Source: Spirochaetota bacterium
GTDB taxonomy: Bacteria > Spirochaetota > UBA4802 > UBA5550
Reading direction: 5' to 3'
NCBI GenBank assembly: GCA_963664815.2
Contig: CAXXHB010000003.1
Span: forward strand, 1,216,001-1,280,000
Length of the DNA stretch: 64,000 nt
Shown piece after piece: positions 52,181-54,020 of the stretch. The first letter of the stretch is position 1. Every line of letters starts with the position of its first letter. Position numbers and translations under genes: made by a program. The notes below the pieces were generated by a model, which made no database searches, was not told the DNA's origin, and saw nothing but the letters and a program-made list of their open reading frames with translations.

Positions 52181-52867
52181 ATGAATAAGAAAGGTGTTAT
52201 TCTGTTAAGTGGAGGACTTGATTCTGCGACGGTTGCAGCCATAGCAATAAAAGAGGGATTCTCTCTGTCTGCTCTGACTTTTTATTATTCCCAGAGGCAT
52301 GAAATTGAAATCGTATTTGCAGAGAGATTAGCCGGTTATTTCAAAATAGATAATCATATAAAAATATCAATACCGGCTGAGATTTTCAAATCAGCATTGA
52401 CAAAGGATTCAGAAATTGAAGTACCCAAAAACAGGGATGTCACAAGGAGTGATATACCAGAAACATATGTTCCGGCGAGGAATATCATTTTTTTATCATT
52501 TGCCCTGGCATATGCCGAATCTACCGGTGCAGAAAATATTTTTATTGGAGCAAATGCGATTGATTATAGTGGATATCCTGACTGCCGACCAGAATTTTTC
52601 AGTGCATTCAGAAAAATGGCTAATACCGGTACAAAGTCCGGCGTTGAGGGGAGGGGATTCACAATTCATACTCCATTAATGCATCTTTATAAGCATGAAA
52701 TAATAAAATTGGGAACAGAATTGGGCCTGGATTATTCTTTTACACATAGCTGCTATGATCCTTCAATTGATGGTTCATCATGCGGGGAATGTGACAGCTG
52801 TCATCTGAGAATGAAGGGTTTTGCTGAAGCAGGCGTTCCTGATCCGACTCAATACAGGAAGAAATGA
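52181..52867 (+). CDS. queC: 7-cyano-7-deazaguanine synthase
   Basis: LLSGGLDS, TYVPARN, GYPDCRP, SCY..CGECDSC. Confidence 0.97.
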   Translation: MNKKGVILLSGGLDSATVAAIAIKEGFSLSALTFYYSQRHEIEIVFAERLAGYFKIDNHIKISIPAEIFKSALTKDSEIEVPKNRDVTRSDIPETYVPARNIIFLSFALAYAESTGAENIFIGANAIDYSGYPDCRPEFFSAFRKMANTGTKSGVEGRGFTIHTPLMHLYKHEIIKLGTELGLDYSFTHSCYDPSIDGSSCGECDSCHLRMKGFAEAGVPDPTQYRKK

Positions 52868-53641
52868 TAAGGTTTTTTCTCTTTTTTCTGGATTTTGTTT
52901 TCCCGTGTAATTGTGTATCCTGCGGTACCCCTGTACCTTATTATATGAATTATTTGTGCAACGAATGTCGTGCATGTATGAATGAGATTAAAAATGGATG
53001 TTCTGTATGCTCTGGAATAGTAGAAGATAATTTCTGTTCAATTTGCGGAGAGAGGATGTTTTATCCGGAAAAGCATATCTCCCTGTTCAGTTATGAAAAA
53101 GTATTAAAAGCTGTAATTCATTCTCTTAAATTTAGGGGTTTAAAGCATATTTACAGGAATTTTGTCCAACTACGGGAGCAGTCTGAAGAGATTTAAGAAA
53201 CGTTTAAAGCATATTTACAGGAATTTTGTCCCGATTATCTGCGGGAGAATTTATGATTTCGGGGAGAAAATAGACATCGTGACTTCTGTTCCCATGAACA
53301 GAAGAAAACTGGTTAAAAGAGGTTATAATCAGTCAGAGTTGATAGCACGGGCTGTCAGCAGAAAAACTGGAATAGAATTTTATGAAATTCTGAAAGAATG
53401 TAAAAACAGGATACAGCAGAGAGATCTTAATTATGATAAGAGATTTATAAATGTTATTGACAGGTATGAAACTGTTAATAATATTAAATTCAGAGGTAAA
53501 GCGGTACTTCTTATAGATGATGTTTTTACAACCGGGGCAACAATTAATGAGTGTTCGAGAATTCTATTGTTAGCCGGTGCTGCTAAAGTATTTTCGATAA
53601 CAATAGTCCGTTCTGACTTAAAAAAGCTTGAAAATCTGTAG
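52864..53641 (+). pseudogene. comF: ComF-family competence protein (double zinc ribbon + PRTase) frameshifted by a 64-bp insertion
   Basis: N-part FP..CVSC..LC.EC..C..C..C..C; C-part RGYNQS, LLIDDVFTTGAT. Removing 53168-53231 restores one 237-aa ORF. Confidence 0.92.
53138..53231 (+). repeat. Repeat(30)-spacer(34)-repeat(30) unit inside comF with CRISPR-like geometry
   Basis: gtttaaagcatatttacaggaattttgtcc at 53138-53167 and 53202-53231, flanking aactacgggagcagtctgaagagatttaagaaac. Confidence 0.95.
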
Positions 53642-53690
53642 AAAAAGAAATAATATAATCATAAATATGACAATATAATTGGAGCAGGTG

Positions 53691-54020
53691 ATGGAGAGAA
53701 TTTCACATGATAATTATGAACTCATAATACTGGAGGGGAGGATCGATCAGGCTGAGTCTGAAGAACTTGAATCTGTTTTGAGTGATTGTGTTGAAGATGG
53801 AAAAATAAATATCTGTATTGATATGATAGATGTCAAGCACATATGCAGTTCTGCGCTTGGAGTTCTTGTCGCAATAAAAAGAAAGATCAAGGATAATGAA
53901 GGTGATATAAAACTTGTTATAAGCAGTGATAATCTCCTTAAACTTTTCGAAACAACTATGTTGAATAAAGTATTTGAAATTTATGAATCACGACGCGAAT
54001 GTCTTCCGAACTTTGATTGA
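53691..54020 (+). CDS. STAS-domain anti-sigma factor antagonist
   Basis: LEGRID, IDMIDVKHICSSALGVLV, LFETTMLNKVF. Confidence 0.92.
   Translation: MERISHDNYELIILEGRIDQAESEELESVLSDCVEDGKINICIDMIDVKHICSSALGVLVAIKRKIKDNEGDIKLVISSDNLLKLFETTMLNKVFEIYESRRECLPNFD

Follow-up and report, generated by a model that had tools for sequence, protein, structure and literature searches.

A repeat-insert-repeat unit within comF of a Spirochaetota bacterium as a probable natural off-target spacer integration by a type I-B CRISPR-Cas system

Nivala, Shipman and Church reportedly described in 2018 how spacers integrated off target and gave rise to new CRISPR loci, termed neo-CRISPR loci, in the type I-E system of Escherichia coli when Cas1-Cas2 was over-produced. 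Here, we analysed a repeat-insert-repeat unit that interrupts the competence gene comF of a Spirochaetota bacterium, at positions 53138-53231 of a 64,000-nucleotide stretch of its DNA (the window, corresponding to C3:1216001-1280000 in a 5.2-Mb genome of three contigs, C1, C2 and C3). We consider it very probable that this unit is a natural off-target, or ectopic, spacer integration by the endogenous type I-B Cas1-Cas2, with Cas4. For E. coli, a preprint that cites this work states that off-target integration spawned new arrays, and for natural genomes it speaks of no more than 'circumstantial evidence ... in two other species' (10.1101/148544).

Three further systems bear on this locus. In the type I-B system of Haloarcula hispanica, Wang et al. 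describe a duplication whose start is fixed at the leader-repeat junction, which depends on a first mid-repeat motif lying about 10 bp downstream, and whose end is placed at a set distance from a motif, whatever the sequence there, with aberrant duplications of 29-33 bp when the spacing is changed (Wang et al., 2016, PMC4872114). For Pyrococcus furiosus, off-target integration by Cas1-Cas2 was seen in vitro at sites sharing repeat features, and the authors took such off-target sites to reveal context-independent elements that the integrase recognises (PMC6698737). In the type II-A system of Streptococcus, 'ectopic' acquisition concerns an internal repeat of a true array in place of the leader-proximal one (PMC7999890). 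Outside over-expression experiments and in vitro assays, there is little documentation of natural, inherited off-target integrations, and one that interrupts a gene was not found in the literature, in a search that did not extend to the key 2018 paper or to any supplements.

The unit in comF consists of two identical 30-bp copies of comF coding sequence around a unique segment of 34 bp, as the first-pass annotation of the window had described it. Copy 1 of the duplicated target, a pseudo-repeat with the sequence GTTTAAAGCATATTTACAGGAATTTTGTCC, lies at 53138-53167, the spacer-like insert at 53168-53201, and copy 2, again GTTTAAAGCATATTTACAGGAATTTTGTCC and 30/30 identical to copy 1, at 53202-53231, after which the native comF frame resumes; none of the three features was assigned a strand. 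Given that the bases bordering the two copies differ on both sides (g/c before, a/c after), the duplication is exactly 30 bp long. Both component sequences are confined to this single locus, with no second copy of the 30-mer (best other match 15 nt) or of the 34-mer (best other match 14 nt) anywhere in the genome. The unit therefore measures 30+34 nt, with a period of 64 nt and a net gain of 64 bp; should a base beside the insert merely happen to equal the target base, the insert may instead be 35 nt long (unit 29+35).

The 64-bp gain has broken the sole ComF-family gene of the genome, where no second comF copy was found. ComF proteins carry N-terminal zinc ribbons and a C-terminal phosphoribosyltransferase domain, normally in one protein of ~230 aa, which are here placed on separate open reading frames (ORFs). 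The 5' fragment, an ORF of 110 aa on the plus strand (52864-53196), holds the zinc-ribbon part, aligns with the N-terminal part of the intact ComF of relatives, and ends at a stop inside the insert; its DZR_2 match scored 23.6 bits, under the cut-off of 27. The 3' fragment, a predicted ORF of 159 aa on the plus strand (53162-53641) with a TTG start inside copy 1, holds the phosphoribosyltransferase part (Pribosyltran, 26.8 bits). Its best NCBIfam family was TIGR00201 ComF (E = 1.1e-23) at 84.1 bits, under the curated cut-off of 233.55; for the intact 237-aa protein of a relative this was also the best family, and its score likewise fell short of the model's cut-off, which is very high. Identity of the 159-aa fragment to same-genus ComF was 72-76%, counted from query residue 11-14.

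As a query, the 3' half of comF found a match in 40/41 genomes searched, this genome counted, and the gene is uninterrupted in 6/7 same-genus genomes, each with one open frame of 237-260 aa. The claim that the 64-bp gain frameshifts comF and that its removal restores a clean ComF held up: deletion of the 64 nt in silico yielded a frame of 237 aa that aligned as a single gap-free block with six same-genus ComF proteins, with 152-168/237 residues identical. Other genes of the same genome that we inspected, namely comEC (a 639-aa frame) and two dprA genes, were uninterrupted.

The comF region was present in five public runs from two studies, none of them on record as RNA, and the four runs that we examined (4 samples, 2 studies) all yielded contigs that span the insert, with no gap and no joint skipping the 64 bp. 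In run X1, which may be the source sample, a contig of 18,249 nt covered the whole 1,801-nt stretch with zero differences. A 1,495-nt contig from run X3 matched 52400-53468, also with zero differences, a 1,441-nt contig from run X4 matched 52847-53748 without gaps and with one other letter, and a 1,085-nt contig from run X5 covered 52847-53468. Therefore, the unit is not an assembly artefact, the failing that the first-pass annotation had named as fatal to its proposal. Short exact repeats can mislead assemblers, and an old tandem duplication with a diverged middle could also have been suspected, since by eye the insert seemed to echo its flanks at the protein level. Yet the independently built contigs from 4/4 runs carry the unit unchanged, 1,100 of 3,000 random genomic 34-mers reached both flank scores of the insert, and residues encoded by the insert occurred in 0/10 of the relatives' ComF sequences examined. 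We accordingly give almost no credence to an explanation by assembly artefact or by diverged tandem duplication.

The echo itself, of the 3' end of the insert plus repeat with upstream comF residues, was seen by eye only. A diverged tandem duplication, or recombination with another comF allele, was rejected as its source, given that the similarity between insert and flanks was reached by 1,015 and 1,198 of 2,000 shuffles. A separate peculiarity concerned the contigs from runs X4 and X5, which switch over comF to unrelated sequence at 52847 and at 53741-53748, with 3-4x flank depth. These breaks coincide exactly with a GANTC and a GATCGATC (GATC) site, with a junction of the form GATC/ACTC (slash, joint), and the switches appear to be proximity-ligation (Hi-C-type) chimeras. 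A mobile comF behind them was set aside, given that the breaks sit exactly at GANTC/GATC sites.

The genome encodes one Cas1 (292.7 bits; Cas1b 447 bits, TIGR03641) and one Cas2, both in its sole CRISPR-Cas locus, which is a complete operon of type I-B located ~221 kb from the comF unit. The operon (C3:1033759-1043306) comprises Cas6, an ORF resembling a REP-associated tyrosine transposase, Cas8b1, Cas7, Cas5b, Cas3, Cas4, Cas1b and Cas2, so that all three adaptation genes sought, cas1, cas2 and cas4, are present and the subtype is the one that had been guessed from the comF site. A leader comes next and then, at C3:1043386-1048317, the array, in which 75 spacers separate 76 identical repeats of 29 nt. 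Given that a degenerate last repeat marks the far end of the array, the leader adjoins cas2. Native spacers measure 35, 36, 37, 38 or 39 nt (10, 34, 25, 5 and 1 spacers, respectively), giving periods of 64-68 nt, and the period of 64 nt found in comF occurs in 10/75 native units. Related genomes of this order carry arrays whose repeats belong to the same family and are also 29 nt long, with 59 spacers of 35-39 nt in all. The sizes expected by the first-pass annotation were thus matched in part: the period of 64 nt lies within the native range, whereas the host repeat is 29 nt and not 30, and the spacers are 35-39 nt and not about 34. Compared with native units, the comF unit has a duplication one base longer and an insert one base shorter than any.

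Only 57 of the 75 native spacers are distinct, and the redundancy takes the form of entire spacer blocks that recur, a sign that parts of the array were duplicated internally. The ORF between cas6 and cas8b (174 aa, C3:1034513-1035034) matched the REP-associated tyrosine transposase model at 60.9 bits, with a cut-off of 80. In two relatives, solitary full or partial I-B repeat copies lie away from arrays (G029:C3:178929-178961 and G096:C129:250-297), either left over from arrays, perhaps, or produced by more stray events.

Two further units of the same construction exist in this genome. When the whole genome was scanned for identical pairs of 24-40 nt whose copies stand 25-50 nt apart, two units came up in addition to that in comF, the array and some tandem arrays on C1: C3:1367701-1367792 (29+34+29) and C3:3686890-3686983 (29+36+29). 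A scan of the genome for isolated pairs that need only be near-exact (>=25/27, that is, at least 25 of 27 positions), at periods of 45-100 nt, gave 13 pairs outside the array, of which only three, the comF unit and these two, were perfect 29-30-nt pairs, with periods of 63, 64 and 65 nt. Scans for older, diverged events at 23 or 21/29 matches showed that, once the three perfect units are set aside, periods of 63-67 nt are not enriched. Both further units are situated at the same 29-mer of an element of ~300 nt that is present in 11 copies, and the other nine copies carry the 29-mer once. Given that these paralogues with a single 29-mer represent empty sites, as judged from an alignment of the two filled and three of the nine empty copies, each further unit is an insertion accompanied by a target duplication of 29 bp. 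One nucleotide close to an end of the 29-mer is deleted in one filled copy relative to the other, and both duplications are still 29 bp long. Apart from boundary ambiguities of 1 nt, this constancy is what one would expect if distance, and not the local sequence, determined where the cuts fall. The three inserts (in comF, at C3:1367730 and at C3:3686919) are mutually unrelated and have no shared ends.

Given two units with one repeat family in a conserved element with a terminator-like hairpin at its end, it could be argued that we are looking at bona fide mini-arrays of a second, unrecognised repeat-guided system. This proposal has to contend with 9/11 element copies that hold a single 'repeat', with a comF unit located inside a coding sequence that is intact in relatives, and with a genome that has only one Cas1; furthermore, no known RNA family covers the element, on which an Rfam search returned nothing apart from group II intron domain V nearby. 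We regard a second system of this kind as highly improbable.

The element copies are intergenic, have inverted GTCTTAAC/GTTAAGAC ends around the terminator-like hairpin, and lie in C3 near 1367.7, 1965.1, 1967.8, 2557.5, 2566.5, 3199.2, 3204.1, 3210.0, 3686.9, 3690.4 and 3692.4 kb. They cluster in islands with ParE/Phd toxin-antitoxin genes, IS110 and Y2 transposases, a tyrosine recombinase and matches to group II intron domain V, as well as a reverse transcriptase adjoining a PolA-like ORF. From its sequence features, the element looks like a cassette array, a candidate integron-like structure with putative attC-like hairpins. Another repeat of ~220 nt was found near C3:3212.8 kb and also flanks the CRISPR-cas locus (C3:1031.9 kb); contigs C1-C3 together hold several dozen copies of it, ~77-96% identical except for one at 69%. 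On the 93.5-kb contig C1 (GC fraction 0.41), arrays of 56-nt tandem units lie near both ends (C1:6470-6786 and C1:92568-93029), and they could mark the termini of a replicon of plasmid or phage-like type, or else reflect overlap in the assembly.

The sites of the three events resemble the native repeat and its leader junction. Aligned to the host repeat, the reverse complement of the comF repeat agreed at 19/29 positions when a single 1-nt insertion was allowed, with the two ends of the duplication falling on the two ends of the repeat, and a gapped score as high was reached at only 1,204 of 10,403,048 genome start positions (both strands, array excluded; 1.2e-4). Without gaps the match was 15/29, which 0.33% of genome positions reach. 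The flank of the comF site reads TAATCG/GG and the native leader-repeat junction TAATGG/G (slash, boundary). When the comF and element sites were compared with the register set by the duplication boundaries, in four combinations of register and orientation, scores of 17 and 18/29 were obtained without gaps, reached by only 6.4e-4 and 1.7e-4 of genome positions. All sites have a TTCC in common, with the near boundary 8 nt away in the native repeat and in comF (taken as 30 bp) and 7 nt away at the element sites, and with the far boundary at 17 nt in the native repeat and at 18 nt at all three ectopic sites. Either GG or CG precedes the near boundary at all four sites, that is, at the native junction, in comF and at the two element sites. 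The resemblance to a type I-B repeat that the first-pass annotation proposed held up, exceeding that of ~99.99% of genome positions, whereas the plus strand on which it had been read was not, the best match being on the minus strand. The window minus strand is somewhat favoured as the sense strand of the comF unit.

For one of the three inserts, a donor could be identified. The 36-nt insert at C3:3686919-3686954 is identical at 36/36 positions to C2:374400-374435, with unrelated flanks, and given that one more base matches the donor, the unit at C3:3686890 may also be read as 37+28. The donor segment lies inside an open frame of 1060 aa, for which 6/7 same-genus genomes had a match at 67-81% identity over the 300 residues queried, in frames of 1031-1060 aa. 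Given this conservation, the donor gene is native to the host, and what was captured is a copy of a spacer-length piece of it. Within a working array, a spacer taken from the host itself would do harm, and its survival at non-native repeats is easy to understand. The same 36-nt insert had 0 matches in viral contigs.

No source was found for the other two inserts. The comF 34-mer, or its 24-nt core, had 0 matches in viral contigs, 0 in metagenome contigs and 0 in genome contigs; against phages and plasmids it gave chance-level matches only (E about 1), and among the 122 genomes of the order, with <=3 mismatches allowed, it occurred in this genome alone. The 34-nt insert at C3:1367730, searched as a 24-mer, likewise had 0 matches in viral, genome and metagenome contigs and no second copy in the genome. 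The foreign origin proposed for the 34-mer by the first-pass annotation was therefore not borne out, as no source was found and the sole ectopic insert with a known donor is self-derived. The comF insert presumably came from DNA that is no longer present or was not sampled.

Native spacers offered little for comparison. Their matches to the host's own genome did not go beyond 17-18 nt, the array had one weak match among phages (90% over ~40 nt, to a Microviridae record) and none among plasmids, the four leader-proximal spacers had 0 matches in viral contigs, and spacers from relatives' arrays had none in this genome. Extra matches from a relative's array were rejected as protospacers, as they proved to be repeats. 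One native spacer had targets, in three of the 122 genomes of the order and in a repeat-like region of short ORFs; in minus-strand orientation, these targets show TCA, CCA and ACA where the donor of the 36-nt insert has the 5' flank GCA, a tentative protospacer adjacent motif (PAM). Widening this search from the order to the class covered the same 122 genomes and yielded no additional target.

Two other explanations must be weighed against these inserts. The units could be the footprint, or the ~29-bp target duplication, of an unknown mobile element or site-specific recombinase, and the two extra units indeed lie in islands of mobile genes (IS110, Y2 transposases, tyrosine recombinase, group II intron domain V). 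The comF gene, however, is not in such an island, no inverted repeats were found in 52500-54000, and the 34-nt insert is unique. The three inserts are unrelated and lack shared ends, and that with a known donor comes from the interior of a conserved host gene, which does not suit such an element either. Known target duplications of insertion sequences (IS) and casposons are far shorter. We consider a mobile-element origin to have very little chance of being correct. The least unlikely alternative, although still very unlikely, is break repair with templated filler, in which a polymerase copied a short stretch and then re-copied ~30 nt of the comF target. Among the three inserts, that at C3:3686919 does duplicate a segment from elsewhere in the genome exactly, as templated filler would have it, and no PAM is firmly tied to the donor of that copy. 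Filler synthesis nevertheless leaves unexplained why three independent events combine a 29-30-bp duplication with a 34-36-bp insert, the dimensions of the host CRISPR unit, why two of them took place at the same 29-mer in different element copies, and why their targets are like CRISPR repeats.

Taken together, the presence of Cas1, Cas2 and Cas4, the period of 64 nt, the repeat-like target, two sister units, empty sites and a donor support the proposal of the first-pass annotation that a natural ectopic acquisition knocked out comF, which is uninterrupted in 6/7 same-genus genomes. We infer that Cas1-Cas2 was the catalyst. The comF site would partly mimic the native leader-repeat junction together with the first mid-repeat motif, in the form of GG/CG, the cut, 7-8 nt and TTCC. 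At such a site, the integrase would make two staggered attacks ~29-30 bp apart, a prespacer of ~34-35 nt would be joined in, and gap repair would duplicate the target, leaving repeat-spacer-repeat in the coding sequence and a frameshift.

Several observations weigh against an off-target integration by this integrase. The comF duplication is 30 bp as compared with a native repeat of 29, and the insert is 34 nt, while 0/75 native spacers and 0/59 spacers of relatives are under 35 nt. The likeness of the targets to the native repeat is only partial: of the 29 positions, at least 10 are different in the pseudo-repeat of the comF unit. Orientation is ambiguous as well: without gaps, the comF site matches at 15/29 on the minus strand and 12/29 on the plus strand, and for the element site it is the opposite relative orientation that gives the slightly better fit (13 as against 10/29); in this opposite orientation, a GGAATTT block sits exactly where GGGATTT stands in the native repeat. 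Neither the comF insert nor that at C3:1367730 has a protospacer or PAM in any collection searched, and the tentative PAM is drawn from one native spacer and three homologous, imperfect targets. Finally, the four runs stem from only two studies, so that one shared lineage is possible, and a minority allele of uninterrupted comF would escape evidence at the level of contigs.

If the integration is what it seems, three natural events in one genome would provide a natural read-out of what the type I-B integrase minimally recognises, and direct support for new arrays arising from stray integrations. They would also put a concrete fitness cost on adaptation, namely the loss of a competence gene and the capture of self DNA that can persist only outside a functional array. 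A broader hypothesis, that the I-B integrase of this lineage repeatedly seeds one-spacer loci in nature and needs little beyond a GG-type junction and a TTCC at the right distance, is one that we put forward as a conjecture far more likely to fail than to hold. Under it, this genome would be a living example of the de novo birth of a CRISPR array, and also of 'collateral damage' by the adaptation machinery, which here would have inactivated the sole comF; with its 3' end close to the native handle region, the comF unit might even be processed and become a working mini-array.

Set beside the described systems, the comF unit resembles the Streptococcus type II-A case in that a spacer was placed elsewhere than at the leader-proximal repeat, and differs from it in lying outside any array and inside a protein-coding gene. 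Unlike the P. furiosus findings, which come from an archaeon and an in vitro plasmid assay, the sites reported here are chromosomal and inherited. As in H. hispanica type I-B, boundaries lie at near-fixed distances from an internal motif, with TTCC kept 7-8 and 18 nt from the boundaries at the three ectopic sites and duplications of 29, 29 and 30 bp. By analogy with the altered sites of that system, the 1-nt excess of the comF duplication would fall within the range seen there; the motif sequences differ, however, and the host repeat is 29 nt and not 30, so that the correspondence is one of analogy. With E. coli type I-E, the locus shares an insert of roughly spacer size and a duplicated, repeat-like site of repeat length outside arrays, which together form a one-spacer seed. 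In contrast to E. coli, the events in this genome are natural and of type I-B, the comF unit stands in the consensus of four read sets, and there are three events in one genome, with one gene broken and with the empty sites and one donor identified. The comF unit is thus a natural member of a known event type and involves no new mechanism.

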